This document shows positions 13,000 through 51,029 of a DNA stretch of 64,000 nt, piece after piece. Made by a program: the position numbers and the translations under genes. Numbering within the stretch: position 1 is the first letter of the stretch; every line of letters begins with the position of its first letter. The notes beneath the pieces are model-generated. The model was not told where the DNA came from. It searched no databases and saw only the letters and a program-made list of their open reading frames with translations. Location: positions 4,823,108 to 4,887,107 of the forward strand of contig OZ252219.1 in the NCBI GenBank assembly GCA_965249105.1. The letters run 5' to 3'. Source of the stretch: Vicinamibacterales bacterium (GTDB lineage: Bacteria > Acidobacteriota > Vicinamibacteria > Vicinamibacterales > UBA8438).

Positions 13000-13055
13000 C
13001 GTTTTTCCCACACCGAACGTACCATCACGAGACCGGTCGCGGGTCCCCCGGGCCA

Positions 13056-14435: not shown

Positions 14436-14455
14436 GGCTTCACCTATCGCGTCCG

Positions 14456-25508: not shown

Positions 25509-26681
25509 CTATAGGTCAGATGCTTCAGACCAGCTGTACGCGTAGCCCACGTCTTCGAGCGCGATCGCCTGCGTCGTCATCTTCAGTGGTCGGAACGTGT
25601 CGATCATCACCGCAAGCTCCTCGGTGCGCTCTTTCCCGATCGAGCCTTCGTACAGCCCTGGGTGCGGACCGTGTGGAATACCGTTCGGGTGGATCGTAAA
25701 CGCTGCCGGCTCGATTCCCTTGCGCGACATGAATTTTCCGGCGACGTAGTACAGCACCTCATCCGAGTCGACGTTGGAGTGGTTATAGGGCGCTGGAATC
25801 GAGAGAGGGTGGTAGTCGAAAAGCCGAGGCACGAAGGAACACAAGACGAAGCCAGGTCCCTCGAACGTTTGATGCACTGGTGGCGGCTGATGTACGCGAC
25901 CGGTGATCGGCTCGAAGTCGCTGATGTTAAAGGCATACGGCCAGAGGTGCCCATCCCACCCGACCACGTCCAGTGGATGATGGCGGTAGTGATAGCGGGC
26001 GATTCGGCCACGCGCCTTTACCCTGACCTCGTATTCACCTTCTTCATCATGGGTGACGAGAGTGTCTGGTGGACGGATGTCGCGCTCGGCGTAGGGGGCA
26101 TGTTCGACGAACTGCCCGTAGTTGTTGAGGTAGCGTTTTGGCGGTTCGACGTGGCCACCGCTGCTTTCGACGACGAGCATCCGCTGCGCCACGCCGTCAT
26201 CCGGGAGAATCCGCCACAGGACGCCGGTCGGAATCACCAGGTAGTCGCCCGGACCGTACTTCAAAGTCCCGAACTGACTCTCCAGCACGCCTGAGCCGTC
26301 GTGGACGAAGATCACCTCGTCGCCCTGCGCGTACCGATACCAGTAGCTCATGGGCTCAACGGGCCTGACCACCGAGATGCACACATCGTCGTTGGCCAGC
26401 AGTGGCACGCGTCCTCCGACCGCATCCCCGCTCGGGGTGAGCTCAATCGTTCGCAGGAGGCGGTGCCGAACGGGGCCTTGTTCGGCGAAAGGAATCTCGA
26501 CGCTGCACCCGTCCTCTATGCGCTGAACCTCGGTGGGGGGACGGAGGTGATAGAGCAGCGACTGAATCCCGGTGAAGCCGCGAGTGCCCATCAGCTCCTC
26601 GTGGTACAGTGAGCCGTTGGGCTGTCGAAACTGCGTATGACGCTTGTGCGGAACCGTCCCGAGCTTGCAGTAGTAGCTCAT
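25509..26681 (-). CDS. hmgA: homogentisate 1,2-dioxygenase (short type)
   Basis: PHKRH, HQPPPVH, HSNVDSDEVLYY, HPxGIPHGPHPG, ELAVMIDTF. Confidence 0.9.
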   Translation of the reverse strand: MSYYCKLGTVPHKRHTQFRQPNGSLYHEELMGTRGFTGIQSLLYHLRPPTEVQRIEDGCSVEIPFAEQGPVRHRLLRTIELTPSGDAVGGRVPLLANDDVCISVVRPVEPMSYWYRYAQGDEVIFVHDGSGVLESQFGTLKYGPGDYLVIPTGVLWRILPDDGVAQRMLVVESSGGHVEPPKRYLNNYGQFVEHAPYAERDIRPPDTLVTHDEEGEYEVRVKARGRIARYHYRHHPLDVVGWDGHLWPYAFNISDFEPITGRVHQPPPVHQTFEGPGFVLCSFVPRLFDYHPLSIPAPYNHSNVDSDEVLYYVAGKFMSRKGIEPAAFTIHPNGIPHGPHPGLYEGSIGKERTEELAVMIDTFRPLKMTTQAIALEDVGYAYSWSEASDL

Positions 26682-26766
26682 CGCCACCCCATCCTCACCG
26701 CGGCATCTACGATGTTGTCGAGCATACAGGTTACAACGTTTCGGGCCGCGAATCGCCGAGGCCGTT

Positions 26767-26782
26767 TGGCACGGTTTGAGCT
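26767..26782 (+). promoter_or_regulatory. possible sigma-54 (-24/-12) promoter for the fahA operon
   Basis: TGGCACGGTTTGAGCT has GG-N10-GC spacing; -12 element imperfect. Confidence 0.35.
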
Positions 26783-26785
26783 GTC

Positions 26786-27691
26786 GTGACAACTCGGGTG
26801 GGAGTCGAATCGGCCGTGCGAAGTCTCCTCGAGTCGGCGGTTGACTACGCGGGGATGTTCCCTCCCGCGAAGCTCACGCTCACAGAGGCGGCGAGCCAAT
26901 ACGCGAGCGCTCACGCCGGAATGCACAGCTGGTTGCTGGGGCGATTCCTCCTTTCCCTCGGGAGGCTTGAGGATTTCGGAGACGTGGTGGAGGCCTCAAT
27001 GCCCGCACGGGGCAGCTCAGTGTGGCCCGTAGGCGTGATTGCGACGGACGACCGGCTGGGGCAACTCGACGCAATCCAGCGATTCAATGAACGATGGACC
27101 GGCTCGCTGAGTGTGGAGGCGGTGGAGATCGCACCCCTATCCCGGTCCAGGGTTGGCGAGGTGGCCGGACAGGTGCCGGAGGGCGTCGACGTGTACTTCG
27201 AAGTCCGTCCAGACGAAGATGTCGGCACCTACCTCGAGGTGGTCGCAGCCGCCGGCGCCGGCGCGAAGATCCGCACGGGGGGAGTCACCGCCGATGCCTT
27301 TCCCAGCACGAGTACCCTCGCGGAGTTCATTGCGTCCTGCGCCAACGCCCGAGTGCCGTTCAAGGCCACTGCCGGCCTGCATCACGCCCTGCGAGGCCCC
27401 TATCCGCTTACGCCGTCGTTGGACAACACGACCACCATGCATGGTTTCCTCAACCTATCTGTGGCGGCGGCGCTCGTGCAGGTGGAGCAGGCGGACCTGA
27501 GCGAGGTCCGTGCGGCGCTGGACGAAACGTCTACTGATGCGTTCAGGTTTCGGTCTGGTCAGCTGACGTGGCGCGATCGCACTCTCGCCGCCGCGAACCT
27601 TATCGAGACCCGCCAACGCTCCTTCAACTCGTTCGGCTCGTGTTCGTTCGATGAGCCGGTCGCAGACCTCGAAGCATTGGGGATGCTGTGA
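26786..27691 (+). CDS. conserved hypothetical enzyme co-transcribed with fahA
   Basis: VDYAGMFPPA, KIRTGG, FKATAGLHH, HGFLN, SFGSCSFDEP; GTGA overlap with fahA; start uncertain. Confidence 0.75.
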   Translation: MTTRVGVESAVRSLLESAVDYAGMFPPAKLTLTEAASQYASAHAGMHSWLLGRFLLSLGRLEDFGDVVEASMPARGSSVWPVGVIATDDRLGQLDAIQRFNERWTGSLSVEAVEIAPLSRSRVGEVAGQVPEGVDVYFEVRPDEDVGTYLEVVAAAGAGAKIRTGGVTADAFPSTSTLAEFIASCANARVPFKATAGLHHALRGPYPLTPSLDNTTTMHGFLNLSVAAALVQVEQADLSEVRAALDETSTDAFRFRSGQLTWRDRTLAAANLIETRQRSFNSFGSCSFDEPVADLEALGML

Positions 27692-29004
27692 CGCGACCTG
27701 TCGACGCGACCCATGACCCGACTCTCCGCAGCTGGGTCGAATCGGCCAACCAATCGGGTGCCGACTTCCCGATTCAGAATCTCCCGTTCGGGATCTTTCG
27801 TCGCTCGGGCGCCCATGAGAGGTGTCGAGTCGGTGTTGCGATCGGTGATCAGGTGGTCGACCTTGCCCAGTGCGGTGAGAGTGGGCTCCTCGAAGGACTG
27901 TCCCCGCAGCTGGTTTCGGCGACTTCGGCGTCCTCTCTCAACGCTCTCCTGGCGGCCGGGCCTGGCGCTGCCTCGGACCTTCGGCGGCGACTGAGCACGA
28001 TTCTGGATGCCAACGCACCAACCCCTGAACCGCGAATCCTCGTCTCGCTCGCGGAGGTGGAACTGGGGCTCCCCGTGGATGTCGGTGACTACAGCGACTT
28101 CTACGCCTCGATCTTCCACGCGACGAACGTTGGCAAGCTGTTTCGCCCCGACAACCCTCTGTTACCGAATTTTCGACACGTACCGATCGCGTATCACGGG
28201 CGAACGTCCTCAATCATTGTCAGCGGTACCGAGGTCACTCGGCCGTGCGGCCAGTCGAAGCCGGCCGACGCGGACCGTCCGTCGTTTGGGCCCTCCCAGC
28301 GTCTGGACTACGAGCTCGAGATCGGGTTCTACGCGGGTTCTGGCAACTCGCTTGGCCGGCCGGTGCCGATCGATAAAGCTGAGGACCATGTCTTCGGCCT
28401 GTCTTTGCTCAACGATTGGTCGGCACGGGATCTTCAGCTGTGGGAGTACCAACCACTCGGCCCGTTTCTGTCCAAGAGCTTCGCGACCAGCGTTGCGCCA
28501 TGGGTCGTAACCCTGGACGCCCTCGCGCCGTTTCGGTGCCCGGCGTTTGTTCGGCGGGACGATGATCCGCAGCCACTACCCTATCTGTCCTCCACCCGAA
28601 ACACGACAGCGGGTGGTCTCGACCTCAAGGTGGAAGCGTTGCTGCGCTCGGCCGAGATGCGTCGCCAGGGCCTGGACCCGTACCGGGTCAGTGCAGGTTC
28701 GACTCGGGAGACGTTCTGGACCGTGGCGCAGATAGCGGCGCACCACACGAGCAACGGGTGCAACCTTCGCCCAGGCGATCTGTTTGCGAGTGGTACCGTC
28801 TCCGGGTCCGAAGAAGGCTCGGAAGGATGCTTGCTTGAGAAGACCAAGGGCGGCACCCGCCCGATCGAGCTGCCGACCGGAGAGCAACGCCACTTCCTTG
28901 TCGACGGTGACGAGGTCATTCTGCGTGGGTATTGCGAGCGCGAGGGGTATACGCGAATCGGGTTGGGCGAATGTGTTGGCGTGGTCCTCCCGGCCCCAGC
29001 TTGA
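27688..29004 (+). CDS. fahA: fumarylacetoacetase
   Basis: FPIQNLPFG, DYSDFYASIFHATN, YHGRTSS, LDYELE, NDWSARD, GPFLSKSF. Confidence 0.95.
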   Translation: MTRPVDATHDPTLRSWVESANQSGADFPIQNLPFGIFRRSGAHERCRVGVAIGDQVVDLAQCGESGLLEGLSPQLVSATSASSLNALLAAGPGAASDLRRRLSTILDANAPTPEPRILVSLAEVELGLPVDVGDYSDFYASIFHATNVGKLFRPDNPLLPNFRHVPIAYHGRTSSIIVSGTEVTRPCGQSKPADADRPSFGPSQRLDYELEIGFYAGSGNSLGRPVPIDKAEDHVFGLSLLNDWSARDLQLWEYQPLGPFLSKSFATSVAPWVVTLDALAPFRCPAFVRRDDDPQPLPYLSSTRNTTAGGLDLKVEALLRSAEMRRQGLDPYRVSAGSTRETFWTVAQIAAHHTSNGCNLRPGDLFASGTVSGSEEGSEGCLLEKTKGGTRPIELPTGEQRHFLVDGDEVILRGYCEREGYTRIGLGECVGVVLPAPA

Positions 29005-29021
29005 CCGGTAACTGAACAACC

Positions 29022-30359
29022 GTGACTACCATCAACGTCGCCGAACTTATCGACACGAGCGGTCTCAGCCGCTTTCAGAAGACGCTGATCCTCCTGTGCG
29101 GTCTCTGCCTGGTCATGGACGGCTTCGACGTCCAGATGATGGGATACGTGGCACCGGCGATCATCGAAGACTGGGGTTCTTCAACCTCCGAGATCGGACT
29201 GGTGATCAGTATCGGCCTCCTCGGCGTCATGCTAGGTGCTCTCATCTTCACGATGGTCGCCGATAGGATCGGACGGCGCCCGGTCCTGATTGGGGCGACC
29301 TTCTTCTTCTCCATCATGATGATCGTCACTGCGCAAGCGACGTCAGTACGGGAGTTGCTTATCCTTCGCTTCATCACTGGCATCGGCCTTGGCTGTGTAG
29401 TTCCGAATGCGACGGCCCTGGCCGGCGAGTACAGCCCCCGACGATTGCGCGTCACCGTCATGATGATCGTCTCGGTCGGTTTCACCGCCGGTGCGGCCTT
29501 CGGGGGCTTTGTCTCGGCCTGGCTGATTCCGAATTTCGGCTGGCGTTCTGTCTTCTACTTCGGCGGGGCCGTCCCGTTCGTCCTCGCCATCCTGATGACG
29601 GTGTGGGTCCCTGAGTCGCTCCAGTTCATGGTCTTGCGTGGTAAGAACCGCGGGCAGGTTGTCCGCTGGCTCAAGCGCATCGCTCCCTCGGCCCCCGTTG
29701 ATGGGGCCGAGCTCGTGGTGAACGAGAAGAGTCGAGGCGGCGTTCCCGTCCTGCACTTGTTCCGGGACGGGAGGGCCTTGGGAACGCTCCTCCTGTGGGC
29801 CGTCAACTTCACGAACATCCTCGACCTGTACGCGTTGTCGGCGTGGATCCCGACGATCGTCGAACGGGCCGGGTACACGACATCCACGGCTGTCCTCATC
29901 GGCGCCACGATGCAGTCAGCGGGAACGGTGGGGACATTTGGCCTGGCTTGGCTCATTGCGCGGCGCGGGTTCGTAGCTGTGCTCGGCGTGAGCTTCGCCA
30001 TCGCAAGCCTGAGCCTGGCTGTCACAGGGCCCTCGCTTTCATCGCTTGTCGCCCTGGTCGTGGTCGTCATCATCTCCGGGTGGTGTATCGTGGGCAGCCA
30101 GCCTGGTATCAACGCCCTTTCTGCCACGTTCTATCCGACGTCGATACGTGCAACGGGAATCGGCTGGGGCCTGGGGATCGGTCGCCTGGGCGGGTTCTTT
30201 GGCCCGTGGGTAGGAGGGCAGCTGCTTGACCAGTGGTCACCAGACGCGCTCTTTCTGCTGGCCGCCATACCGGCGCTCCTGTCGGCGGTGATCATGTTCA
30301 CGCTGGGAAACGTCCTGCCGTCGCGGCAGGTGGGCAAAGCGAGCGTGGAGGCCGCGTGA
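29022..30359 (+). CDS. MFS aromatic acid:H+ symporter (AAHS, PcaK/GenK-like)
   Basis: DGFD, ADRIGRRP, EYSPRRLR, RATGIGW.LGIGRLG. Confidence 0.9.
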   Translation: MTTINVAELIDTSGLSRFQKTLILLCGLCLVMDGFDVQMMGYVAPAIIEDWGSSTSEIGLVISIGLLGVMLGALIFTMVADRIGRRPVLIGATFFFSIMMIVTAQATSVRELLILRFITGIGLGCVVPNATALAGEYSPRRLRVTVMMIVSVGFTAGAAFGGFVSAWLIPNFGWRSVFYFGGAVPFVLAILMTVWVPESLQFMVLRGKNRGQVVRWLKRIAPSAPVDGAELVVNEKSRGGVPVLHLFRDGRALGTLLLWAVNFTNILDLYALSAWIPTIVERAGYTTSTAVLIGATMQSAGTVGTFGLAWLIARRGFVAVLGVSFAIASLSLAVTGPSLSSLVALVVVVIISGWCIVGSQPGINALSATFYPTSIRATGIGWGLGIGRLGGFFGPWVGGQLLDQWSPDALFLLAAIPALLSAVIMFTLGNVLPSRQVGKASVEAA

Positions 30360-30778
30360 GCCCCCGACCGGGACGACCGTCGTCAATTCGCGCCCTCGCT
30401 GCGGGAGTCCTGGCGCTGACTGCAGCCCCGCCGATGGGCGCCCACCACTCCATCCTGCCATTCGACGGCACCCAGGCGACGACCGTGCACGGAGTGGTGG
30501 CGAGGTTCGTTTGGCAGAACCCACATGCGCATATCTATCTCGATGTCACGAACGAACAGGGTGACGTAGAGCAGTGGGCGATCGAAAGTGAGGGTGCCAA
30601 CGGGTTGCGCAGGCTTGGCTGGACGAAGGATGTGATTAGACCGGGCGATCGGGTGACGAGCATGGGGGCGCGCGCGAAGAACGGCGCCCCGATCATGCGG
30701 TGCCAGGCGCTCGTGTTGGGGGACGGGCGGCGTCTAGCTTGCCAACTCGAGATTGAAACACCATTGAGGAAGGGATAG
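30356..30778 (+). CDS. DUF6152 family protein
   Basis: Signal peptide-AHHS...WQNPHAHIY; GTG overlaps the MFS stop. Confidence 0.8.
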   Translation: MSPRPGRPSSIRALAAGVLALTAAPPMGAHHSILPFDGTQATTVHGVVARFVWQNPHAHIYLDVTNEQGDVEQWAIESEGANGLRRLGWTKDVIRPGDRVTSMGARAKNGAPIMRCQALVLGDGRRLACQLEIETPLRKG

Positions 30779-30817: not shown

Positions 30818-31633
30818 ATGGAGCCCTCCGTGAACCGGCGTGTCGCAATGGCGATCGTTCTCTCCTTGGCGGTGGGAGCCCTCGCGCAGAGCGCATGCGG
30901 GAATGCAGCAACGGGCGATGGCATGGCGGCGGACTCGCCGCTGCGCACGTCTGACGGCCATCCCGACTTTCAGGGGATCTGGCAGGTTCGCAACACCGCT
31001 CACTGGGATCTGCAGCATCACGCCGGCAGCGACAACATACCCGCGGGTCTTGGCGTCGTCGTCGATCCGCCGGATGGACGCATTCCGTACCAGGAGTGGG
31101 CGCTCGAGCAAAAGCAGGCGAACTTCGAAGACCGCGACACACTCGACCCGCAAGAGAAGTGCTACCTGGCCGGCGTCCCGCGAACGATGTATCTGCCGTT
31201 CCCGTTTCAGATCTTTCAAACTGACGAAGAGGTCGTGGTCTTCTCGGAGTATGTCCATACATGGCGCTGGCTCCCGCTATTCGACCTTCCACGCTATCCC
31301 GGGTATGAATCGTGGATGGGAGACCCGCGCGGGCACTGGGAGGGAGACACGCTTGTGGTTGAGTCGATCGGCTTCAACGGTCAAACGTGGCTCGACCACG
31401 CCGGCGACTTCCACAGTGACGCCCTGGTCGTGACCGAGCGGCTTACCCTCGCCGACGCCGACACGATCACCTACGAAGCGACGATCGAGGATCCGACGGT
31501 GTTCACGCAGCCGTGGACGATCCGTATGCCGATCTACCGCCACCGTGACATGGATCAGATCCTCGAGTACGAATGCTATCTATACGCGGAAGATGAGGGC
31601 CGGCCGATCTTCGGTCGGCATCCGGAAAACTAG
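30818..31633 (+). CDS. uncharacterised secreted lipoprotein, paralog 1
   Basis: PDFQGIW, PDGRIPYQ, KC..GVPR, GHWEGDTLVV, EDP..FTxPWT, EYEC. Confidence 0.8.
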   Translation: MEPSVNRRVAMAIVLSLAVGALAQSACGNAATGDGMAADSPLRTSDGHPDFQGIWQVRNTAHWDLQHHAGSDNIPAGLGVVVDPPDGRIPYQEWALEQKQANFEDRDTLDPQEKCYLAGVPRTMYLPFPFQIFQTDEEVVVFSEYVHTWRWLPLFDLPRYPGYESWMGDPRGHWEGDTLVVESIGFNGQTWLDHAGDFHSDALVVTERLTLADADTITYEATIEDPTVFTQPWTIRMPIYRHRDMDQILEYECYLYAEDEGRPIFGRHPEN

Positions 31634-31645: not shown

Positions 31646-32518
31646 GTGAGTCGTAAAGCGAGATTCGTTGGTGGTACGGCCGCGGCATTCACACTTGTCT
31701 CACTGGTTCTCATGTCGGCCGGGGGACAGGACACCGAAGCTCCAGAGCTGTTCGGTGGCTGTCCAAGCGATTCTGTCGCGTTCCACGAATGCGCGGTAGA
31801 AAAGGCCAAGACCTTCGACCCGCCTCGAACGCCGGACGGTCAACCCGACATGCGCGGATACTGGCGCGGCCACCACAATGGCGCCGCGTTCGACATCGAG
31901 CCCGGCGAACGGTCATTCGCGCTGCAGCAAACGCTCGGTGTGATCGTGGATCAGCCAGACCGACGTATCCCCTATCAGCCTTGGGCGCTGGCTCGCAGAG
32001 ACGAGCTCCGCGAACAGCTGTATCTCGACCCCCAGGCGCACTGCGCTCCATCGGGATCACCGCGAAAGAACTTCACGAACTACGGCTGGCGGATCATCCA
32101 GCTACCGGAACACTTCCTCTTTGTCTACGAATCGATGCACGACTATCGGATCATTCCGACCGATGGCCGTGCCCACCTGCCAGAGACCGTCAAGCTGTGG
32201 CATGGCGATCCGCTGGGGCACTGGGAGGGCAACACGTTCGTCGTGGATTTCACCAATCTCAACGGCAGGCACTGGTTCGACATGTCAGGAAATTTTCAGA
32301 GTGAGAACATCCACGTCGTCGAGCGCTATACGCTGATCGACCCGGACACGATTCACTTCGAGGCCAGGATCGAGGATCCGACCATCTACACCAGTAGCTG
32401 GACGCTGTCGTTTCCCTTCGTTCGGAACAACGAGGAAGGCTACTACCAGCTCGAATACGCCTGTCACGAGGGCGAACGCGACCTCCAACATCTGATGCCA
32501 GATGCCGACTCGCATTAG
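31646..32518 (+). CDS. uncharacterised secreted protein, paralog 2
   Basis: Same motif series as 30818. Confidence 0.8.
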   Translation: MSRKARFVGGTAAAFTLVSLVLMSAGGQDTEAPELFGGCPSDSVAFHECAVEKAKTFDPPRTPDGQPDMRGYWRGHHNGAAFDIEPGERSFALQQTLGVIVDQPDRRIPYQPWALARRDELREQLYLDPQAHCAPSGSPRKNFTNYGWRIIQLPEHFLFVYESMHDYRIIPTDGRAHLPETVKLWHGDPLGHWEGNTFVVDFTNLNGRHWFDMSGNFQSENIHVVERYTLIDPDTIHFEARIEDPTIYTSSWTLSFPFVRNNEEGYYQLEYACHEGERDLQHLMPDADSH

Positions 32519-32551: not shown

Positions 32552-32986
32552 CTAACGAGTCGTTCGAGTCGGACCGCCGGGGGCGCCCGTCCCTGGGGAT
32601 CCGGTGTAGAAACCGCGACCGTCGGGCAGGGTCACGCTTTGGCTGTTCGCGGTTGTCGACCCATCTTTGGCGCGATAGCCGTCGACAGTCACGATTGAGC
32701 CAATAGGCAGGTGATCCTCGGTGACGCCGCGTCTGATCAGCGAGTTGGGCGTGCCCATCTCGATATTCCACCGCGTCGTGTTGCCGTCCTCATCCGTCAC
32801 TTCGATATACAGCCAGGCGTGGGGGTTCACCCACTCGACCCTTACGAGGGCGCCCTCCAAGGTGATTGGCTGGTTGGCATCGAACTCGGCGGCAAAGGCG
32901 TGGTGGGCAAGACCCCTGGCTCCGGCGAGTTGGACGCCGACCACAATTCCCAACCCGAGCGTTACGAGTCTGACGTGCGCCGCCAT
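32552..32986 (-). CDS. DUF6152 family protein
   Basis: AHHAFAAEFD...WVNPHAWLY...GDGYRAKDG-like motif. Confidence 0.85.
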   Translation of the reverse strand: MAAHVRLVTLGLGIVVGVQLAGARGLAHHAFAAEFDANQPITLEGALVRVEWVNPHAWLYIEVTDEDGNTTRWNIEMGTPNSLIRRGVTEDHLPIGSIVTVDGYRAKDGSTTANSQSVTLPDGRGFYTGSPGTGAPGGPTRTTR

Positions 32987-33022
32987 TGGTATGCTCCTTG
33001 GCCACGAAACGCGAGACGTCGC

Positions 33023-34225
33023 TTATCGTAGGCCCGTGAACGTGAACTTCTGCACACGGTCCCCGCCGACAGTTTCTGCCACGTAGATATTCCCGTGTGA
33101 GTCGGTTTCGAGCGCATGGACAATCGCGAATTCGCCCGCATACTGTCCACCCGTCCCGAACGAGTCGACAATCTCCAGAGTATCACGACGTAGGATCCAC
33201 ACCTTCTTGTTGGCCCCGTCACCGAGATACAGGAATCGTTGCTCGGGATCGACAGAGAAGGCGATGTCGAACGATGCCCCGAACCCGAGCGTGCGTGGCG
33301 CAACGAACCCCTCCTGCACGAACGTCCCGTCCTTGTGAAAAACCTGGATTCTGTTGCCCTCTCGGTCGCACACGTACACCAGACCGTCGCGGCTCACCTC
33401 GACGCAGTGCACAGGACGCCGAAACTGTTGGGACGGGGGAGCGTCGGGATCGTACTGCGGGTCGCCGTCGAGGGGCGCGTTGCCGTACGCGCCCCACATC
33501 CGCTTGAACGCCCCAGTGTCAGCGTCGAGCACGATCACGCGGTTATTCTCGTACCCGTCAGCGACATAGACCTCGTTGTCCTCCTCAACAACAAAGAGGC
33601 CAGCAGGGGAGCCGAAGTTGTCCGTATCGGCGTTGCCTCCACTCTGGCCGAACGACCCTCGCTGAAAGACCAGCTGGCCGTCTCCCGTCAACTTCGTCAC
33701 GGTGGCCGCACCCGGCTCCGCTCCCCCGGTCCACACGTTGCCCTGATGATCGACGAACAGCCCGTGCTCGCGCGGCCAGTCGTAGCCCTCGGCCGTGCGC
33801 TTGCTTTCAGGTGCGGCCGGATCCGGTCCACCCCAGGCCTGAACGACCTCGCCCGATGGGTCGAACTCGATGATCGATGGGAAGGGTCGGCAGCACTCGC
33901 CGGCTGGTGGATCGAGTGCTGCGTAGTCGTTGGACAGCGTCATCGAGAGCGGACGATGAATGACCCACAAATGATCGTTCGCGTCCACGGCCATCCCCGC
34001 GACGTTGCCAAAAACCCATTGGTTGGGGAATGGCCGCTTCGGCCAGGTTGGATCGAAGTCGAATACCGGGACCGGGTCGCCGTCGGCCGAGGTCGGGACG
34101 GCTTCCGGGGGTTCGCTGGGTGGGGGCTGGCTCGGGGCGCCGCAGCTGGCGAGGATCCACCCACTGATGACCAGCAGTCCGATGGGTGCTGCCCCGTGTC
34201 GCTTCATCCTGCCTCCTTCGTCCAT
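33023..34225 (-). CDS. NHL-repeat lipoprotein, PAL (peptidyl-alpha-hydroxyglycine lyase)-like
   Basis: EHGLFVD, YVADGY.NNRV, VHCVEV, CDREGNRIQVF, VHALETD; start may be 34207. Confidence 0.8.
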   Translation of the reverse strand: MDEGGRMKRHGAAPIGLLVISGWILASCGAPSQPPPSEPPEAVPTSADGDPVPVFDFDPTWPKRPFPNQWVFGNVAGMAVDANDHLWVIHRPLSMTLSNDYAALDPPAGECCRPFPSIIEFDPSGEVVQAWGGPDPAAPESKRTAEGYDWPREHGLFVDHQGNVWTGGAEPGAATVTKLTGDGQLVFQRGSFGQSGGNADTDNFGSPAGLFVVEEDNEVYVADGYENNRVIVLDADTGAFKRMWGAYGNAPLDGDPQYDPDAPPSQQFRRPVHCVEVSRDGLVYVCDREGNRIQVFHKDGTFVQEGFVAPRTLGFGASFDIAFSVDPEQRFLYLGDGANKKVWILRRDTLEIVDSFGTGGQYAGEFAIVHALETDSHGNIYVAETVGGDRVQKFTFTGLR

Positions 34226-34306
34226 GCGTTCATGCCGCCTCCTCTGCCGAGCGCCGTTCTTCTACGACCTCGGGACTGCCGCGACGTCGAGGCTCAGCCG
34301 GCGACG

Positions 34307-35464
34307 TCAGGGACGACGACGTGGAGGGGCCTGGAGCTCTTTCCAGGAAGGCACCTCAGGATTCCGCGCGAGCCATCCCTCGTAGTCAGTCCGCCGATTC
34401 TTTAGAGATGGATCCTCTTTCTCTAGATTTCGCACGGCATTGAGTATGTGCACCATCGCGTAGTTGCCTTCCGCGCATGCGTACTCGAAGAAGATGAGGG
34501 ACTTCTCGTCTGTGAGAATGTTCGTCAGCGTGAGCTCGACCGACCACGGAGACATGAACTTGGATGGATCAGTGACCGTCAGTTGGTACTCCATCTCGTC
34601 AGGTCCAACACGCGTCCAGCGTTCAGCGAGGTGCAGGGTTTCCGACCCGGACTTCCAGGTGTCCTGCCACCACTGATCCGCCTTATCGAGAAAATGACTC
34701 GTCTCGACGACCAGGCTGTCACCTTCCCACCGACCACTGGCGTTGCCGAGCCAGGTCGGCACTTCGCTCGATGGCCGGCCGTCGGTTGGGATGATGCGGC
34801 GGTCGCGGAACTGCTCATGGAGGATGACGACGTACCCAGGACCCTGAACGAACTGATTGGGTCCCGTCCCGACCCACATTTGACCGATGGTGCCATCCGT
34901 GAGACACCGTTCACCGGTGTCCCTGTCGAGCCAGGAGTTGGCGTAGTGATCGTCGGGCGGATAGTTGGATACCCACATCGCGTGGAACTGCTCACGCTTG
35001 ATCAGCTCGGGTCTCAGCGGAAGGCGGCCATCCGGGGGCTCCACGATGAGCGAGGTGCGCCGGCTCGCCTTCTTCGCTAGGCCCTCATACACCCAGAACC
35101 GGTTGTACTCATTCGACTGAAATGGGGATTCCTCGACGTCAGGGCGGAAGTCGTCTGCGCCGTCGATGCCTTTCGCGAAGGTCGCCGCCTCTCGTGCCCG
35201 GATATCAGCCACCTCTTCGTTGGTGAGAAACTCTCGTCCGTCGACGTTGTCGGGACGTTCCAACGGCGCGGTCCCCTGATGTCGCCACACTCCCTGGAAG
35301 TCCGGCTCGCCCCAGGCTGTGCGAGGCGCGGTCCATGCCTCGTCGGTCGCCTCCGTCTGCTCGGACCCGCACCCCAGGGAGAAGGTGAGGGCGCCAATCG
35401 CGCAACCGCCGAGCCATCCTGATCGCCGCGTCCACACTTGTTTTCTCTTGTGAGCTGGCTCCAC
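34307..35464 (-). CDS. uncharacterised secreted lipoprotein, paralog 3
   Basis: PDFQGVW, PPDGRLP, GRWEGDSLVVE, EYACAEGN. Confidence 0.8.
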   Translation of the reverse strand: MEPAHKRKQVWTRRSGWLGGCAIGALTFSLGCGSEQTEATDEAWTAPRTAWGEPDFQGVWRHQGTAPLERPDNVDGREFLTNEEVADIRAREAATFAKGIDGADDFRPDVEESPFQSNEYNRFWVYEGLAKKASRRTSLIVEPPDGRLPLRPELIKREQFHAMWVSNYPPDDHYANSWLDRDTGERCLTDGTIGQMWVGTGPNQFVQGPGYVVILHEQFRDRRIIPTDGRPSSEVPTWLGNASGRWEGDSLVVETSHFLDKADQWWQDTWKSGSETLHLAERWTRVGPDEMEYQLTVTDPSKFMSPWSVELTLTNILTDEKSLIFFEYACAEGNYAMVHILNAVRNLEKEDPSLKNRRTDYEGWLARNPEVPSWKELQAPPRRRP

Positions 35465-35485
35465 GCGAATGCTCGAGTCCTCTCG

Positions 35486-35941
35486 CTATTCTTCTGGCGG
35501 CACCGGCACTCGGGCGACGAGCACCTCGCCTTGCCCGGCGTTGCGCGTCTTATGGCCGTGCCCGGTTGTATCTGCCACGAGCAGGACTGAGCCTGGCGGA
35601 AACACCCTCGCCTCTCCGCTACCTGCCGTGACCTCAAAGAGGCCCTGCATGATCACCAGAAACTGCTTCCTCGGTGACGGATGGTACCCCTGAGAGAAAC
35701 CTTCCGGCAGCCGAAGGAACCCGACACTTCTGGCCTCCAGCAGCGGCGTCGTCCACGCTTCCAGTGACGGGAGAGGTGCCCAAGCGATTTCATCGTCGTC
35801 GAAATGAGAAACCCCATCGTCGTCCGGATAGATCCTCGCGTATGACAGCGCGTCGTCCTGAGCCGCGAGCGGTTGTGTGAGAAAAGCCACCGCAGAGAGC
35901 AACAATGACCCGGCCAAGAAACAGCTGTTTACCTTCCTCAT
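35486..35941 (-). CDS. secreted cupin-domain protein
   Basis: Signal peptide; YHPSPRKQF...GSVLLVADTTGHGH. Confidence 0.8.
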   Translation of the reverse strand: MRKVNSCFLAGSLLLSAVAFLTQPLAAQDDALSYARIYPDDDGVSHFDDDEIAWAPLPSLEAWTTPLLEARSVGFLRLPEGFSQGYHPSPRKQFLVIMQGLFEVTAGSGEARVFPPGSVLLVADTTGHGHKTRNAGQGEVLVARVPVPPEE

Positions 35942-35988
35942 TGCTTCACCCCTCCGCCCATAACCTCATCGCAACCTCCGACGGAGGT

Positions 35989-37269
35989 TTACCCGCCAGC
36001 GGGGTCGAGACTGTAGGTCGTGAAACCGATCATCATCTCTTCCCACGTCTGCTCGCCCCACGACACCGGGCTTGCCGGGTCGGGGTTGAAGCGGTTTGCG
36101 GCTGAGTTGTCGAACACGGCGGTACACACGAGGCGGGAACCGGCGGGTGCTTTGATCGGCTCCTTCAGGTAGTAGTCGCGCTGCCAGTTGAAGTCGTAAC
36201 GCGGCACCGACAGGAGCACCTCGCTACTCCCGTCAGGGTAGAAGAGGACGTACTCAAATGCCTTCCCGCGCCGGTGCATGTGCGGAAACAGGGTCCAGAG
36301 TAGGACATCCTCCGTGAACGTCACTTGGGACACCACCTCGTGATGTGCCGCCCCCGCCGGAATCTCGAAGTCGAAGGTCATGACGGGAATCGTCCGGAGC
36401 CGCTGCGCCGGCGGCTCGTCGGCGAAGAGGAAACCGATCTGGGTTTGGTCGACCGTTGGCGTCCCAATGGTCACGTAATGCACCTCGAGGGTAAGTTCGG
36501 AGCCAGCCCTCACCAGGAGGCCCGCGTCGTCGCTAAGCTGCGGAGGCTCGGTGCCAACTCCGGCTGCCAGCACCACGTTCCCGAATGGCGAAACGCGCAG
36601 CGTGGGCTCATCTCCGATCTGCTTCGCTGGGCCGCTGTCGATCCGGATACCGGGGTACTCGACCTCATTGGGGTCGGGCGCAGGCTCCCGGGCGTGCAGG
36701 CCGACGTGGTGAACGACCGCCGGGTTACTCGGGAGCACCTGCACGCGCGCGATCCACTTGTCCTCCGCGAAATTTGTAGGGATGACGAAGTGTTGGTAGG
36801 CGACCGCTCCCTCGGCTGGCACCTCGAACGGTTCGGCGATCTGCAAGACGACGTCAGGTGTACCGATCAGCCACCCACCCGGAAAGACCGGCTGGGACGG
36901 CAAGTCGCCCGGATCACCTTCCGGAGAGCCGGCATCAACCCATGAGACGATGGCCTCAATTTCTTGTTCGGTAAGCGAGGGGTCGTTCTGAAACTTTCCA
37001 TACTGAGAGTCGGCATGCCACGGGGGCATCTCGCGCGCGAGAACCCTTTGCTTGATCGCGCGTGCCCACGGCCGCGTTTCCGCGTAGCTCATCAGCGGCA
37101 TCGGGCCGACAGCGCCCTCACGGTGACACTGCACACACCTCTCGTACAGGATGGGTGCGACGTCCCCGGTAAAGGTGGCACGTTCGGGACGCGTTTGCGC
37201 GAGCCCCTGCGCCACCGTCAGCACACAGATGCTCAGCGTGAGAAGCGCATCAACCCACGATCGCTGCAT
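35989..37269 (-). CDS. heme c + copper type II (PHM/DBH-like) monooxygenase
   Basis: CVQCH; VVHHV, EVHY, PHMH, EEMM; start refined to MQRSW. Confidence 0.8.
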   Translation of the reverse strand: MQRSWVDALLTLSICVLTVAQGLAQTRPERATFTGDVAPILYERCVQCHREGAVGPMPLMSYAETRPWARAIKQRVLAREMPPWHADSQYGKFQNDPSLTEQEIEAIVSWVDAGSPEGDPGDLPSQPVFPGGWLIGTPDVVLQIAEPFEVPAEGAVAYQHFVIPTNFAEDKWIARVQVLPSNPAVVHHVGLHAREPAPDPNEVEYPGIRIDSGPAKQIGDEPTLRVSPFGNVVLAAGVGTEPPQLSDDAGLLVRAGSELTLEVHYVTIGTPTVDQTQIGFLFADEPPAQRLRTIPVMTFDFEIPAGAAHHEVVSQVTFTEDVLLWTLFPHMHRRGKAFEYVLFYPDGSSEVLLSVPRYDFNWQRDYYLKEPIKAPAGSRLVCTAVFDNSAANRFNPDPASPVSWGEQTWEEMMIGFTTYSLDPAGG

Positions 37270-37403
37270 CACCTCGCCTCCATACGGTCGGGAGGGCATC
37301 GCCCGACTACGTTCGACTCCGTCTTCGCAATGTCCATTCTCGTATACTGACAGAACGTGAGCGGCGCGCAAAGTTCGAATCGATGAGGCAGGGACGATCA
37401 ACA

Positions 37404-38243
37404 ATGCGCATTCAACTCCTCGTCCTGGCCGCGACTGCGGTCGTCGTGATCGCGCTGCATCCGGCGCCGCCGCTCCTGGCGCAAGCCCCGACGTTCGAGG
37501 TTCCACGCCTACCGGACGGCGCACCGGATTTGAGCGGAATCTGGCAGACTCTCAATACGTCGAACTACGACATCCTGGCTCATCCGGCGAGGCCGGGCCC
37601 GTTTCCTCAATTGCTCGGGGCGATCGGCGCCGTCCCGGCCGGTCATGGCATCGTCGAGGGGAACGAGCTTCCTTACCAGCCCTGGGCGCTCGGACAGAAA
37701 CAGTCGAACTTCGACACTCGTCTGCACGCCGATCCGCATGATTTGACAATCGGGGACCCGGAGGCGAAGTGCTTCATGCCTGGTGTTCCGCGCGCCAACT
37801 ACATGCCCTTCCCATTTCAGATCGTGCAGGGCACAGACCAGATCCTGATCGCGTACGAGTTCGCTCACGCCAGCCGCATCATCCACATGACCGACGTGGG
37901 CGAAAGCCCGACGAACACGTGGATGGGGCACTCGCGAGGGCGCTGGGACGGCGACGTGCTAGTCGTCGATGTCACGAGCAACATTGCGGATACGTGGTTT
38001 GACCGTGTGGGTAACTTTCACAGCGAGGAGATGCGCGTCACGGAACGATGGACGAGGACCGGTCCAGACCACATCTCCTACGAAGCCACGATCGACGATC
38101 CGGAAGTGTTCACGCGTCCGTGGACGATCCGCTTCCCGCTGTACCGACGAATCGAGGACAACGCGGAGATCAACGAGTTCCGGTGCGTTGAGTTCGCCGA
38201 GCCCTTCATCCTCGGAACGCTGAGCAACCCGCCCCTGAAGTAG
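37404..38243 (+). CDS. uncharacterised secreted protein, paralog 4
   Basis: PDLSGIW, KCFMPGVPR, GRWDGDVLVV, DDPEVFTRPWT, EFRC. Confidence 0.8.
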   Translation: MRIQLLVLAATAVVVIALHPAPPLLAQAPTFEVPRLPDGAPDLSGIWQTLNTSNYDILAHPARPGPFPQLLGAIGAVPAGHGIVEGNELPYQPWALGQKQSNFDTRLHADPHDLTIGDPEAKCFMPGVPRANYMPFPFQIVQGTDQILIAYEFAHASRIIHMTDVGESPTNTWMGHSRGRWDGDVLVVDVTSNIADTWFDRVGNFHSEEMRVTERWTRTGPDHISYEATIDDPEVFTRPWTIRFPLYRRIEDNAEINEFRCVEFAEPFILGTLSNPPLK

Positions 38244-39934: not shown

Positions 39935-40757
39935 GTCGGGTAGACCAGGGTCGTTGCTGACCCTGGCCCCCCACAGATCCGGACGTGCGGGTTCTGCCGC
40001 ATCCGGCTCCTCGACAGATGGCTTCGCTACGCGCCGTCGCGTACCCGTTGGTCCAGGAAGCCAGGCGATGGCCACCGCCATCCCCAAGGCTTGTCTGGCC
40101 AGTTCGGCTATCCGTTGTCGTGACGTGGAGACGGGACCCAACCTCGGTGTGTTGGCCGTCTTTCCCTCCACCGGTGCCACCTGCCGGTGCCCCCTTCCCT
40201 CCACGGGGTCTCGTGGGCTCAATTCCCCCGTTTCGGCGGTACTATGAGACACTCCGACTCCTCGCCGTCCATCCCCCCGCGCTTCGTTGCCTTCGCCCGG
40301 CGGTACCATCCGAGCACCTGCGGCTTCGCTCCGTCGGACGCCAGGTGCTGCGTCCACGGCCTCGGGCTTGGTGAGCCGGTGCCCGCCCCCCGGCGGTCTT
40401 TAAGATGGAGACGACGAGGCCTCCCGGGTTCCCGGGAAACCCACCCGCACGCATGCCACGCGCTCCGACCCCGGCGAGGTCGCCGCCTCCACGGCCTCTG
40501 AGATGCGGCGAGATAGCCTTCCGTCCAACGCACGACGTCGGCCCTCACAAACAATGCATTTCGGGGCTCAATCACGCGGCCTACGGGCTCCCTGTGAACG
40601 CTTCGCGCCCTGGGTCACCCCAGGCCCACGCATCACTCGGTTCCGGCTGGCGGCCGACCTTGGCCGGATGGGATTGGATACCCACAGGGTTTCGAACAAG
40701 GTTTCAAAGATCACATCACGGCATCTTGTCCCCCTTGACCGGGCTTTCCCGGCACAC
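39935..40757 (-). mobile_element. group II intron with internally deleted IEP (823 nt)
   Basis: 5' GTGTGCCGGG; domain V GAGCCGGATGCGG...CGCACGTCCGGATCTGTGGGG; domain VI ending CTACCCGAC; only IEP N- and C-terminal stubs remain. Confidence 0.9.
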
Positions 40758-41012: not shown

Positions 41013-42098
41013 TCAGGCAGCCAAGTCTGCGGCTTGGCGCGCTCGGTGGTCTGCCATCACGCGTTGAAAGATCTCGCGGGCGAGAAAGCGTTTGAGACAG
41101 CGGATGATCTCCCGTTTGGGCCGCCCTTCAACGGTGCGTCGTTCGACGTAGTTGAGGGTTGGTGAGTGGTACCGCATCCGCACGATGACGGCCCGGTGGA
41201 GCGCGGCGTTGGCCTGTCGATGACCGCCGCGGTAGAGGCGGTGGCGGCCCGTCGTCATCCCGGACGAAGCCGGGATGGGGCAGGCCCCGCAGAGCTTGGC
41301 GAAGGCGGCTTCAGAATGAATCCGATCGGGGTTGTCGCCAAAGATGATCAGCATCTCGGCGGCGGTGTCGGCACCGATGCCAAAGCCCTCACGCAGCGTC
41401 GGCGAGGTCTGGGTGGTGAGTCGACCCAGGTGACGGTCGTGGTCCACGATCTCGACGGAGAGAGCGAACCAGCGCCGGGCGAGCGCCCGGAGGGTATGTT
41501 TCGCCGAGGCAGTCGGCGTATCGATCGTGCCGCATCGCCATCCGCGGCAGCGTTTGAGGAGCGCCTGGTCGGCGAGCGGGTGGAGGGTCTCTCGCAGCTC
41601 CGGCGGGGCGTTGACGACGATCTGCTTCAGCGTGATCATCGCCGAGGTGCGGGCTTTGACCGCCGTCCGCCGCGCGACCTTGAGGTGGCGCATCATCTCG
41701 ACCGCCCCGTCCGCGGTCTTCGGGATGGCGGTCGATTGGCCAGCCAGGACCGACCGCGCCGCGGTCTCGGCATCCACGGGGTCGGACTTCCCGGCGATTC
41801 GACGTGTGCGCCGGTCGCCCCGGTTCACTTCGAGCACCTGGTGCCCGGCTCGCCGGACCGCGCGCGCGAGTCCCGCCCCGTAGCTGCCGGTGCCCTCGAT
41901 GCCGAACGCGGCGATGCGTCCGTGACGCTCGGCCCAGGTGATCAGCTGTTGGTAGCCGTCTGAGTCGGCGGCACACGATCGATCGTCGAGGCGGATCCCC
42001 CACGTGTCGATCGCCACGGCCACGTGGACGTGCTTGTGGGTGTCCACGCCGACGATCACCTTCCGCGCGTCGGGTTGAATAGTCCTGTGGTTCGTCAC
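41013..42098 (-). CDS. IS110-family DEDD recombinase/transposase
   Basis: VGVDTHK, GIEGTG, KSDPVDA, GIGxxTAA, PIPASSG, GGHRQAN. Confidence 0.95.
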   Translation of the reverse strand: MTNHRTIQPDARKVIVGVDTHKHVHVAVAIDTWGIRLDDRSCAADSDGYQQLITWAERHGRIAAFGIEGTGSYGAGLARAVRRAGHQVLEVNRGDRRTRRIAGKSDPVDAETAARSVLAGQSTAIPKTADGAVEMMRHLKVARRTAVKARTSAMITLKQIVVNAPPELRETLHPLADQALLKRCRGWRCGTIDTPTASAKHTLRALARRWFALSVEIVDHDRHLGRLTTQTSPTLREGFGIGADTAAEMLIIFGDNPDRIHSEAAFAKLCGACPIPASSGMTTGRHRLYRGGHRQANAALHRAVIVRMRYHSPTLNYVERRTVEGRPKREIIRCLKRFLAREIFQRVMADHRARQAADLAA

Positions 42099-43617: not shown

Positions 43618-43965
43618 TCACACAGGCGTGAGCTGACGAAGCAGGCGCTCAGTCATCCGCAGCGACAACGTCTCCATTTCCACAACGATTCGGTCTAGCT
43701 GTCGGCCGTTCTCGATCCAGTCCCGGACACGCTCGGCTTGCTGCTCGGTGAGACGGACGGTGACGGTCTTGCCGCGGACCTTGCGGGTCCACTGATAGTA
43801 CGGCCCGTGTAGCTGCGGGGGCGTCGCTTGGCAGCGGCAGTTCGGCTTGCCGCACGGCATGAAACGTTGCACGAGGCTGCCACGTCGAAGCAATCCCACC
43901 TCAGCGACGGTGCGCTTGAGCGCGTCGTAGCGCTGCGTGTCGGTTGTTGGGTCACGGGTGGGCAT
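43618..43965 (-). CDS. DUF6788-like passenger protein
   Basis: RGSL...CGKPNCRC...HGPYYQWT...GKT. Confidence 0.8.
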   Translation of the reverse strand: MPTRDPTTDTQRYDALKRTVAEVGLLRRGSLVQRFMPCGKPNCRCQATPPQLHGPYYQWTRKVRGKTVTVRLTEQQAERVRDWIENGRQLDRIVVEMETLSLRMTERLLRQLTPV

Positions 43966-44028
43966 GTCGTGCCATTCGGTCTAGCAGTTGTTATACTGCT
44001 AGACCTGGCCCCAGGAGTCAAGAAGAAA

Positions 44029-45168
44029 ATGAGCCGTCTCCGAGAGTGCTTCGCACCACACTGGCTGTCCATTCAGACCGCACTCTTTCCATGGCTGGAG
44101 GAAGAGCTGGGACCACTCACGGAGAAACAGCAGCAGTTCGTGCAGACCTTGGAGGTCATCCGGGTCGAGGACCACATTCCCCGACGCGTCCGCATGCCCG
44201 GCCGACCTCGCAAGGATCGCGCGGCCGTCGCCCGCGCGTTTGTCGCCAAGGCCGTCTACGACCTGCCGACGACACGCAGGCTGCTCGATCGGCTGGCCAC
44301 CGATCGACCCTTGCGCCGGATCTGCGGCTGGGAGACTAGGCGCCAGGTCCCGAGCGAATCCTTGTTCTCACACGCCTTCGACGAGTTTGCGACCACGCAG
44401 TTGCCTCTGCGCGTGCACGAGACGGTCATCCAGAAGACGCATCACGACCGATTGGTCGGTCATCTCTCGCGAGACTCCACCGCGATTGCGGCACGCGAGA
44501 AGCCCGCCACGAAGGACAAGCCGCCCGCGCCCTCGCAGCGGAAGCGGGGACGACCGAAGAAGGGAGAGGAGCGCCCTCACGAGCCCACGCGTCTGCAGCG
44601 GCAGGGCACCATGACCAAGCCGGAGATGCTCGCTGATCTCCCGACGGCCTGCGATGTCGGGACGAAAAAGAACAGCAAGGGCTACAAGGAAACCTGGGTC
44701 GGCTACAAGCTGCATATCGATGTGGCCGATGGCCAGATCCCCATCAGCTGCCTACTGACCACTGCCTCCCTTCATGACAGCCAGGCCGCTATTCCGCTCG
44801 CAACCCTGTCCGCCGAGCGGAGCACCAATCTGTACGACGTGATGGACGCCGCCTACGATGCGCAGGAGATTCGGGCACACAGCCGTTCGCTGAACCACGT
44901 TCCGCTGATCGACATCAACACGCGCCGCAACACGGCGCTGAAGGAAGAACGCCAAGCGGAAGCTCGGCGCCGACAGGTGCTTGGCTTCCAGCTTCCGGAG
45001 GACGTTCGCTACAACGAACGCACGGCCGTTGAGCGGGTCAATGGCCGCCTCAAGGACGAATTCGGCGGTCGCCATGTCCGGGTCCGCGGCCCGGCGAAGG
45101 TGATGTGCCACTGCATGTTCGGCGTGCTCGCACTCACCGCTGACCAACTCATGCGCCTCGTCACGTAG
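44029..45168 (+). CDS. DDE transposase (YREK motif)
   Basis: RDSTAI, GYKLH, DAAYD, YNERTAVERVNGRLK; start refined to MSRLRE. Confidence 0.95.
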   Translation: MSRLRECFAPHWLSIQTALFPWLEEELGPLTEKQQQFVQTLEVIRVEDHIPRRVRMPGRPRKDRAAVARAFVAKAVYDLPTTRRLLDRLATDRPLRRICGWETRRQVPSESLFSHAFDEFATTQLPLRVHETVIQKTHHDRLVGHLSRDSTAIAAREKPATKDKPPAPSQRKRGRPKKGEERPHEPTRLQRQGTMTKPEMLADLPTACDVGTKKNSKGYKETWVGYKLHIDVADGQIPISCLLTTASLHDSQAAIPLATLSAERSTNLYDVMDAAYDAQEIRAHSRSLNHVPLIDINTRRNTALKEERQAEARRRQVLGFQLPEDVRYNERTAVERVNGRLKDEFGGRHVRVRGPAKVMCHCMFGVLALTADQLMRLVT

Positions 45169-46338: not shown

Positions 46339-46401
46339 GTCGTGCCATTCGGTCTAGCAGTTGTTATACTGCTAGACCTGGCCCCAGGAGTCAAGAAGAA
46401 A

Positions 46402-50966: not shown

Positions 50967-51029
50967 GTCGTGCCATTCGGTCTAGCAGTTGTTATACTGC
51001 TAGACCTGGCCCCAGGAGTCAAGAAGAAA

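Follow-up and report, generated by a model that had tools for sequence, protein, structure and literature searches.

Within a 64,000-nucleotide stretch of a Vicinamibacterales bacterium genome (contig OZ252219.1, assembly GCA_965249105.1; the whole stretch is called the window, and all coordinates refer to it), an operon of five minus-strand genes (32552-37269) encodes an exported copper monooxygenase of the PHM/DBH fold with a fused c-type heme domain (cytc-PHM) and a six-bladed NHL β-propeller lipoprotein related to PAL (the NHL protein). PHM and PAL, the two catalytic modules of PAM, turn a C-terminal glycine into an amide using ascorbate. We propose, with a probability of roughly 0.4, that the operon carries out a PAM-like two-step oxidative cleavage in the periplasm on a different, probably small-molecule substrate.

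A copper monooxygenase with a fused c-type heme domain

The cytc-PHM gene (35989-37269, minus strand, 426 aa) was identified as that of an exported, heme c-fused, PHM/DBH-like type-II copper monooxygenase from Pfam, a family profile and an AlphaFold2 (AF2) model searched with Foldseek. The protein consists of a signal peptide, a heme c domain (approximately residues 30-125) and a two-domain copper core (approximately residues 135-424). A GGAGG ribosome-binding site lies 9 nt 5′ of the ATG at 37269. A longer, GTG-start open reading frame (ORF) reaching to 37524 was ruled out, since 41 homologues begin at the position of ATG 37269 and the GGAGG precedes that codon.

All motifs described here lie on the minus strand. 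The heme c attachment motif CVQCH (C45, C48, H49; 37123-37137) and the motif MPPW, containing the probable distal heme methionine M81 (37018-37029), are invariant in the alignment. When the single sequence was scanned, Pfam Cytochrom_C matched residues 41-112 with 22.8 bits, just over the cut-off. This match, the CxxCH motif, Met81 and the signal peptide are those of a class I c-type cytochrome.

The copper ligands follow in the order expected of PHM and DBH. Two of the three CuH ligands are provided by HH (H187-H188; 36706-36711), aligned to the HH of DBH, and the third by H264 (36478-36480), aligned to the HY of DBH. The CuM histidines are those of HMH (H330-M-H332; 36274-36282), aligned to the HTH of DBH. 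The profile alignment to DBH ends before the CuM methionine, and M412 (36034-36036, within EMM 36031-36039) was assigned to this role from its spacing and conservation. The ligands are separated by 76, 66 and 80 residues, compared with what we take to be 64, 70 and 70 in PHM. Close to the CuM histidines, the alignment revealed an additional invariant arginine, R334 (36268-36270), which is specific to the family.

In an alignment of 42 homologues (42-96% identity), C45, C48, H49, M81, H187, H188, H264, H330, H332 and M412 were all invariant. Conservation extended to 132 family ORFs from other loci, where the heme motif was found in 130, each copper ligand in 120-126 and the motif residues overall in 120-131. 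The original prediction had described HH, H, HxH and M in a PHM-like order behind an N-terminally fused CxxCH, and this description was borne out by the alignment and by the structural comparisons below.

Searches of Pfam, NCBIfam and the PDB with the single cytc-PHM sequence returned the cytochrome domain alone and no PDB match; the protein did not reach the threshold of PF01082 or PF03712 and matched neither at E≤0.01. PF03712 is carried by some of its homologues. The family profile, by contrast with the single sequence, matched human DBH (4zel) at E=2e-6 with the HH pair, the third CuH histidine and the CuM HxH in register, while a profile of the C-terminal domain alone gave a marginal match to DBH and did not bring PHM itself into the sequence alignment. 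Structure prediction was applied to both enzymes of the operon. The AF2 model of cytc-PHM (pLDDT, the predicted local distance difference test, 80.8; predicted template modelling score 0.79) gave Foldseek matches in which the top 31 PDB entries were all DBH or PHM (about 30 PHM entries; E 2e-12 to 2e-9, target-normalised template modelling (TM) score approximately 0.6, identity 14-18%), and no bacterial structure was among these best matches. The relation to PHM and DBH is beyond chance, and cytc-PHM is a true, remote member of the copper monooxygenase fold of PHM and DBH; its two copper sites are intact, and it carries a fused c-type heme domain.

The arginine R334 was lost in all but one of approximately 12-15 paralogues that had also lost copper ligands. 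This co-loss suggests, from sequence comparison, that R334 probably belongs to the active site.

A tandem paralogue was observed just 3′ of an intact cytc-PHM gene in twelve loci, of the Blastocatellia type. These paralogues keep the CxxCH motif and the methionine and have lost most copper ligands and R334 (e.g. H-C-H-C-N-L-L); they may be heme-only partners or pseudo-enzymes.

The family is large. A database search at 90% clustering yielded at least 7,300 cytc-PHM homologues at E≤1e-5, and the cytc-PHM profile, run against 1.84 billion cluster representatives (50% identity), retrieved 24,726 proteins at E≤1e-3, of which 6,778 remained at E≤1e-30. Members are concentrated in Acidobacteriota-type soil bacteria, and the nearest named homologues come from Vicinamibacterales and other Acidobacteriota and from metagenome-assembled genomes of Gemmatimonadota. 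Where homologues are annotated at all, they are called "cytochrome c" or [quoted passage not shown]. Relatives that also carry a thioredoxin-like domain are annotated as "cytochrome c" or "AhpC/TSA family protein". The architecture is already partly flagged by domain databases and its function is unstudied. No characterised member or solved structure of the family was found, and the literature, which was incompletely covered, yielded no description of DUF6152 or of PAL-like or cytochrome c-PHM proteins from bacteria. Being periplasmic and fused to a cytochrome c, the core adds a new architecture to the type II copper monooxygenases.

Many members of the family (nine were noted individually) carry an N-terminal AhpC/TSA-Redoxin domain before the cytochrome c-PHM core, and some relatives add C-terminal α/β-hydrolase, GDSL lipase, ankyrin, EF-hand or BlaR1-M56 modules. 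The AhpC/TSA-Redoxin fusions hint that redox chemistry in the family at large is linked to thiols or peroxide.

A PAL-like propeller lipoprotein

The second enzyme is encoded at 33023-34225 (minus strand, 400 aa) and was identified from a Pfam NHL match (E=5e-15), an alignment to PAL and an AF2 model. The true start of the NHL protein is probably M7 at 34207, upstream of a lipobox, ILASC, at 34142-34156. Five motifs on the minus strand, EHG (33761-33769), DGY (33551-33559), VH (33407-33412), DRE (33359-33367) and VH(A) (33113-33121), were invariant in 40 homologues; family membership in the databases amounts to at least 6,900 homologues at E≤1e-5.

Alignment to rat PAL assigned H154, H273 and H370 as the zinc ligands, Y225 and R288 as the catalytic residues and R91 as the carboxylate-binding residue, corresponding to H585, H690, H786, Y654, R706 and R533 of PAL, respectively; all were invariant or nearly so in the 40 homologues. 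The individual correspondences were reached by different routes. H154, Y225 and R288 fell directly on H585, Y654 and R706 in the phmmer alignment to rat PAL (3fvz/5wm0). H273 fell one position off H690, yet both occupy the same blade motif, xH-x7-G-x5/6-D, and H370 was equated with H786 through the same blade motif and the ends of the full-length alignment. R91 was equated with R533 by an ungapped alignment of residues 73-100 to PAL 515-542, a local alignment that is weak taken alone but agrees with the PDB search alignments. Among 73 family ORFs from other loci the active-site residues were present in 66-73, with Y225 in 66, R288 in all 73 and R91 in 71. The zinc histidines and the catalytic tyrosine and arginine had been named in the original prediction, and the alignment places them on their PAL counterparts.

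In sequence searches of the PDB, generic NHL domains (Thin, TRIM71) scored highest, owing to their repeats, and rat PAL (3fvz, 5wm0) was the sole structure matched in one stretch over the whole propeller. Consistent with this, the AF2 model (pLDDT 88.5) had PAL (3fvz) as its top Foldseek match (E=3.4e-19, TM score 0.75, 23% identity). An invariant vicinal cysteine pair, C111-C112, was also found in the NHL family. In bacteria, then, the propeller is a relative of PAL that resembles a family member and, as judged from the alignments, its nearest counterpart there, with all known catalytic and substrate-binding residues aligned.

Operon context and the proposed two-step cleavage

The five genes are closely packed in the order cytc-PHM, cupin, 385-aa lipoprotein, NHL and DUF6152, with gaps of 47, 21, 81 and 36 bp. 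The cupin gene (35486-35941, minus strand) encodes a small exported protein of 151 aa, with a Cupin_2 match (E=1.5e-4) under the gathering score; a PDB sequence search gave a weak match to a Cupin 2 barrel and nothing useful. The gene at 34307-35464 (minus strand) encodes a probable lipoprotein of 385 aa from an unannotated family, which had no sequence match in Pfam, NCBIfam or the PDB. The last gene (32552-32986, minus strand) encodes a 144-aa DUF6152 protein (PF19649, E=4e-31). Signal peptides were read from the translations of cytc-PHM and the cupin, the lipobox of the NHL protein is accompanied by a near-lipobox, SLGC, in the 385-aa protein, and an export signal was predicted in the DUF6152 protein from its ...A|HH junction. 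To our knowledge, c-type hemes are made outside the cytoplasm only, and the export signals on the operon products are consistent with c-type heme maturation. A scan of the locus for promoters and terminators gave counts equal to those of shuffled sequences and was uninformative. All features named in the original prediction were located where it had placed them, including the arrangement of two secreted enzymes on one strand with a cupin and a lipoprotein between them.

We propose that the fused cytochrome c would draw electrons one at a time from the respiratory pool of the periplasm and pass them to CuH (H187/H188/H264), and that CuM (H330/H332/M412) would activate O2 and hydroxylate a C-H bond beside the heteroatom of a carboxylate-bearing substrate, the unit attacked being a glycine-like N-CH2-COO- or O-CH2-COO-. 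R334, beside CuM, is a candidate carboxylate anchor. The PAL-like propeller would then bind the α-hydroxy product through R91, the zinc site and Y225 and split it into an amide, amine or alcohol fragment and glyoxylate; this second step is suggested by a fully conserved active site, including the arginine for the carboxylate of the glyoxylate moiety. The freed fragment, possibly aromatic, would enter the cell through the neighbouring MFS transporter for degradation. That heme c replaces ascorbate as the electron donor to CuH, as originally predicted, is a reasonable supposition from sequence, because the fusion is nearly invariant (130 of 132) and c-type heme is extracytoplasmic.

If the two enzymes act in sequence, their genes would be expected to stay together. 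The pair lay within 5 kb in all four relatives looked up (60-78% identity), in two gene orders. At 78% identity (L084/L085) the whole five-gene operon was kept; at 63% identity (L081/L082) it was kept with an acyl-CoA-ligase-type gene inserted. In both, the cupin gene holds the same operon position and the DUF6152 gene remains 3′ of the NHL gene. In L083 and L166 (60-63% identity) the order was NHL-HupE_UreJ_2, an AMP-binding gene, an unassigned gene, cytc-PHM and a pyrroloquinoline quinone (PQQ) dehydrogenase, with the NHL gene less than 5 kb away. A 292-aa gene 5′ of cytc-PHM in L083 was compared with the lipoprotein family and with a 301-aa ORF of the window (below) and was unrelated to either. 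The block from 37383-38243 (plus strand), a divergent 286-aa paralogue of the 385-aa lipoprotein, through the DUF6152 gene is inverted in the window relative to L084, which suggests that the paralogue and the operon move as a unit.

Outside this clade, a relative at 50% identity had no NHL gene within 9 kb, and the pair recurred in five further loci: L076 and L078 (41-51% identity), L131, L135 and L143. The NHL and cytc-PHM ORFs are 13 bp apart on the same strand in L131, and L143 carries two copies of each. Of 80 metagenome loci, 10-12 have the unannotated lipoprotein family next to the NHL family. In L131 and L135, genes of the lipoprotein family, NHL and cytc-PHM occur along with a PQQ dehydrogenase. 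In our reading, linkage survives rearrangement in the orthologous clade and recurs independently in a few lineages, exceeding the expectation for unrelated genes as far as can be said with no chance baseline (copies per genome being unknown).

Several results weigh against a coupled function. An NHL gene was present in 2 of 80 cytc-PHM-seeded genome loci (L076, L078) and a cytc-PHM gene in 3 of 80 NHL-seeded metagenome loci (L131, L135, L143), many of which were short. None of four NHL homologues with 62-69% identity had a cytc-PHM gene within 10 kb; they adjoin TonB/CarboxypepD_reg outer-membrane proteins and NHL paralogues. By ORF clustering the commonest neighbour of cytc-PHM was a PQQ/cytochrome c dehydrogenase (18 of 80), and the commonest neighbours of NHL genes were a HupE_UreJ_2 membrane protein (22 of 80) and also TonB-type receptors. 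Finally, the residues with which PHM holds the carboxylate and backbone of a C-terminal glycine, which we take to be R240 (two residues before the first CuM histidine), N316 and Y318 (at +2 and +4 from the CuM methionine), are not conserved; at these positions relative to the ligands, cytc-PHM has F328, I414 and F416. The two genes were found together in the four relatives of at least 60% identity and in L076, L078, L131, L135 and L143, and apart in 78 of 80, 77 of 80 and 4 of 4 other loci; on these counts an obligate family-wide module was rejected. The label "PHM-type" in the original prediction held for the PHM/DBH fold and the copper ligands and proved too specific otherwise, since sequence significance was obtained against DBH only, placing the protein at least as near DBH, and the three substrate-holding positions read F/I/F.

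The main alternative, only slightly less probable than the two-step cleavage, is that the two enzymes are independent and act on different substrates within a nutrient-scavenging locus. Here cytc-PHM would be a DBH-like hydroxylase of an unactivated or benzylic C-H bond of some organic substrate, working alongside periplasmic dehydrogenases and cytochromes, with PQQ-dependent alcohol oxidation returning the electrons. The propeller would cleave something else that TonB-type receptors bring in, such as ureidoglycolate-like compounds or glyoxylate adducts that form spontaneously. The frequency of PQQ/cytochrome c dehydrogenases beside cytc-PHM, also in L083, L166, L131 and L135, fits this alternative, as do the NHL genes found mostly beside HupE_UreJ_2 or TonB/CarboxypepD_reg proteins with no cytc-PHM, the absence of the PHM-specific substrate residues, and the cupin and lipoprotein genes that separate the pair in the window. 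It is harder to reconcile with linkage that persists, across two gene orders, in four of four relatives of at least 60% identity, and with separate juxtapositions in distant lineages, directly adjacent in L131. Moreover, the only role we know of for a PAL active site is to cleave what a PHM-type hydroxylation has produced.

Three observations on these neighbours were made in passing. The PQQ-dependent dehydrogenases near cytc-PHM genes (e.g. L008, L083, L131, L135, L166) often have an N-terminal cytochrome c domain of their own; a hydroxylase and an alcohol dehydrogenase on common cytochrome carriers would let the dehydrogenase repay the electrons of the hydroxylation. Among the larger ORFs of the window scanned against Pfam there was no PQQ dehydrogenase. 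In L076, L083, L166 and the 22 of 80 loci mentioned above, the NHL gene is followed by one for a membrane protein of 450-476 aa that ends in a HupE_UreJ_2 domain, which we take to be a putative metal transporter family. An HpcH/HpaI-family aldolase/lyase gene lies near the NHL genes in two of the four unlinked loci (L167 16803-17753 and L169 11397-12341), a sample too small for interpretation; glyoxylate is a product or a substrate of some enzymes in that family, and such a neighbour may fit a glyoxylate-releasing propeller.

The genes beside the operon bear on the kind of substrate. A homogentisate-dioxygenase-like gene (25509-26792, minus strand), a fumarylacetoacetase gene (27688-29004, plus strand) and a gene for an aromatic-acid/H+ MFS transporter (29022-30359, plus strand) were identified with Pfam and NCBIfam, and a 301-aa ORF (26786-27691, plus strand) received no family in the same scan. 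The catabolic and transport genes of 25509-30359 are also found in L084/L085. Next come a second DUF6152 copy (30233-30778, plus strand; by family membership) and two paralogues of the lipoprotein family (30818-31633 and 31646-32518, plus strand; by sequence). Farther out, the window encodes a 1115-aa TonB-type outer-membrane protein, a Vgb-lyase-like propeller and ankyrin proteins. The setting is one of uptake and catabolism, perhaps of aromatic compounds, and not of peptide maturation.

Periplasmic peptide amidation, one of the two functions originally predicted, did not fare well in this setting of homogentisate-dioxygenase-like, fumarylacetoacetase, aromatic-acid transporter and TonB-type genes. 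True C-terminal amidation, maturing a secreted or ribosomal peptide natural product as PAM does, would account for the presence and export of both PAM catalytic modules and for the fully conserved PAL residue set, including the equivalent of R533. When the larger ORFs of the window were scanned with Pfam and NCBIfam, small ORFs being outside the screen, there was no peptide precursor, protease or enzyme for peptides made by the ribosome and modified after translation (RiPPs). Together with F/I/F in place of R240/N316/Y318, the catabolic and transport context, and families that are too large and too paralogous (several copies per locus) for a dedicated maturation role, this makes peptide amidation the least probable of the readings considered.

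A different role was suggested by the DUF6152 proteins. In every DUF6152 protein seen, the two of the window and those of L081, L094, L120, L156 and L165, a signal peptide ending in alanine is followed by His-His and, about 30 residues on, by NPH. The mature N-terminal histidine and NPH resemble histidine-brace copper sites, and from this pattern DUF6152 could be a candidate copper-binding partner of the monooxygenase. The locus might accordingly serve metal handling or redox protection, with cytc-PHM as a periplasmic copper/heme redox protein (for instance an oxidase, or peroxide-linked), DUF6152 as its copper-binding partner and the NHL protein as a zinc- or metal-binding protein working with HupE/UreJ-type transporters. 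Besides the histidine-brace-like residues, the N-terminal AhpC/TSA-Redoxin domains of many family members, the rank of HupE_UreJ_2 as the top neighbour of the NHL family and a heavy-metal-binding-domain protein near some cytc-PHM genes agree with such a role. Both enzymes keep full catalytic sets (Y225, R288 and R91; the CuM methionine and R334) instead of metal ligands alone, and the neighbours are catabolic (fumarylacetoacetase, dioxygenase-like, aromatic-acid transporter; acyl-CoA ligase in relatives). We consider metal handling unlikely, less so than peptide amidation and well behind both the two-step cleavage and the independent action of the two enzymes.

Other features of the window were also recorded. 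Four paralogues of the lipoprotein family share PD..G.W, two invariant cysteines, W.G..LVV, ER and DP..PW, with no invariant histidine. At 8217-18588 (minus strand) lie two pairs of PSCyt/PSD (DUF1585/1587/1588/1592/1595) and DUF1552 (HXXSHH) genes, together with one more c-type cytochrome and two large proteins of ankyrin repeats, and the same set occurs 3′ of the operon in L081-L085 and in L169. A group II intron was found with Rfam at 39935-40677 (minus strand; D1-D4 40459-40677, 138.7 bits; D5-D6 39935-40011, 45.5 bits). The approximately 450 nt between its parts are too short for a full intron-encoded reverse transcriptase, and it is an ORF-less or degraded intron in a gene-poor stretch of 38.3-41 kb. 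Beyond it are an IS110-like transposase ORF (41013-42098, minus strand) and three copies, 99.9-100% identical, of a 446-aa DDE transposase (DUF772 and DDE_Tnp_1) at 43828-45168, 46201-47541 and 50829-52169 (plus strand). This cluster of mobile elements beside the locus may be the reason why the operon block is inverted when compared with L084.

The standard examples of non-coupled binuclear copper monooxygenases are PHM and DBH, and the transfer of electrons from CuH to CuM across approximately 11 Å, like the role of the physiological reductant, is debated. A soluble bacterial version with a built-in heme donor would be a spectroscopically trackable model for this question that can be expressed in bacteria. 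A PAL of bacteria whose active site is complete, and whose gene sometimes adjoins that of the monooxygenase, bears on the evolutionary origin of peptide amidation. The operon may also point to an unrecognised periplasmic route by which glycine conjugates or aryloxyacetates undergo oxidative dealkylation as carbon and nitrogen turn over in soil. More broadly, and as a doubtful generalisation, bacteria might hold a counterpart of PAM driven by the respiratory chain, in which a periplasmic copper monooxygenase, fed by a covalently fused cytochrome c in place of ascorbate, passes its α-hydroxylated product on to a zinc lyase of the PAL type; in that case the partnership of PHM and PAL would be older than the eukaryotes, its first role having been oxidative N- or O-dealkylation of glycine-type conjugates for nutrition, and the cytochrome c-PHM core would be a very large unexplored class of bacterial O2-activating copper enzymes.

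Comparison with known systems

The monooxygenase resembles the catalytic cores of rat PHM (PHMcc; 1PHM/1OPM/1SDW) and human DBH (4ZEL) in its two-domain β-sandwich and in the order of the HH...H CuH and HxH...M CuM ligands, and the HTHxxG signature of PHM and DBH is partly kept as HMHRRG. Identity to either is only about 15-18%. In the place of the fused N-terminal c-type heme of cytc-PHM, DBH carries a DOMON domain, and PHM lacks any redox partner domain; unlike both, cytc-PHM is bound for the periplasm of a bacterium, a compartment not expected to hold ascorbate. R334, two residues past the second CuM histidine and so across the pair from the R240 position of PHM, is specific to the cytc-PHM family.

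Within the bacteria, the same core occurs in the AhpC/TSA(Redoxin)-cytochrome c-PHM-like proteins, which match the profile with E down to 1e-270. The protein of the window represents the minimal core, with no thioredoxin-like domain and no C-terminal hydrolase, ankyrin or EF-hand additions.

The NHL protein shares with the catalytic core of rat PAL (PALcc; 3FVZ/3FW0; EC 4.3.2.5) the six-bladed NHL propeller, the zinc histidines, the catalytic tyrosine and arginine and the carboxylate arginine. It differs in being a separate lipoprotein and not a domain of a bifunctional membrane protein, in about 50 extra loop residues, and in its vicinal cysteine pair C111-C112. After the third zinc histidine it has alanine or serine where PAL has D787, presumably a calcium ligand. 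Most members of the NHL family have no PHM-like neighbour, unlike PAL in PAM.

With the bifunctional PAM of animals and green algae, the operon has in common that both modules are co-encoded and directed to the same extracytoplasmic compartment. In contrast to PAM, the modules are unfused with two genes between them, their linkage is confined to one clade and scattered cases, the electron supply is presumably cytochrome-based, and the context is catabolic instead of that of peptide-hormone processing.

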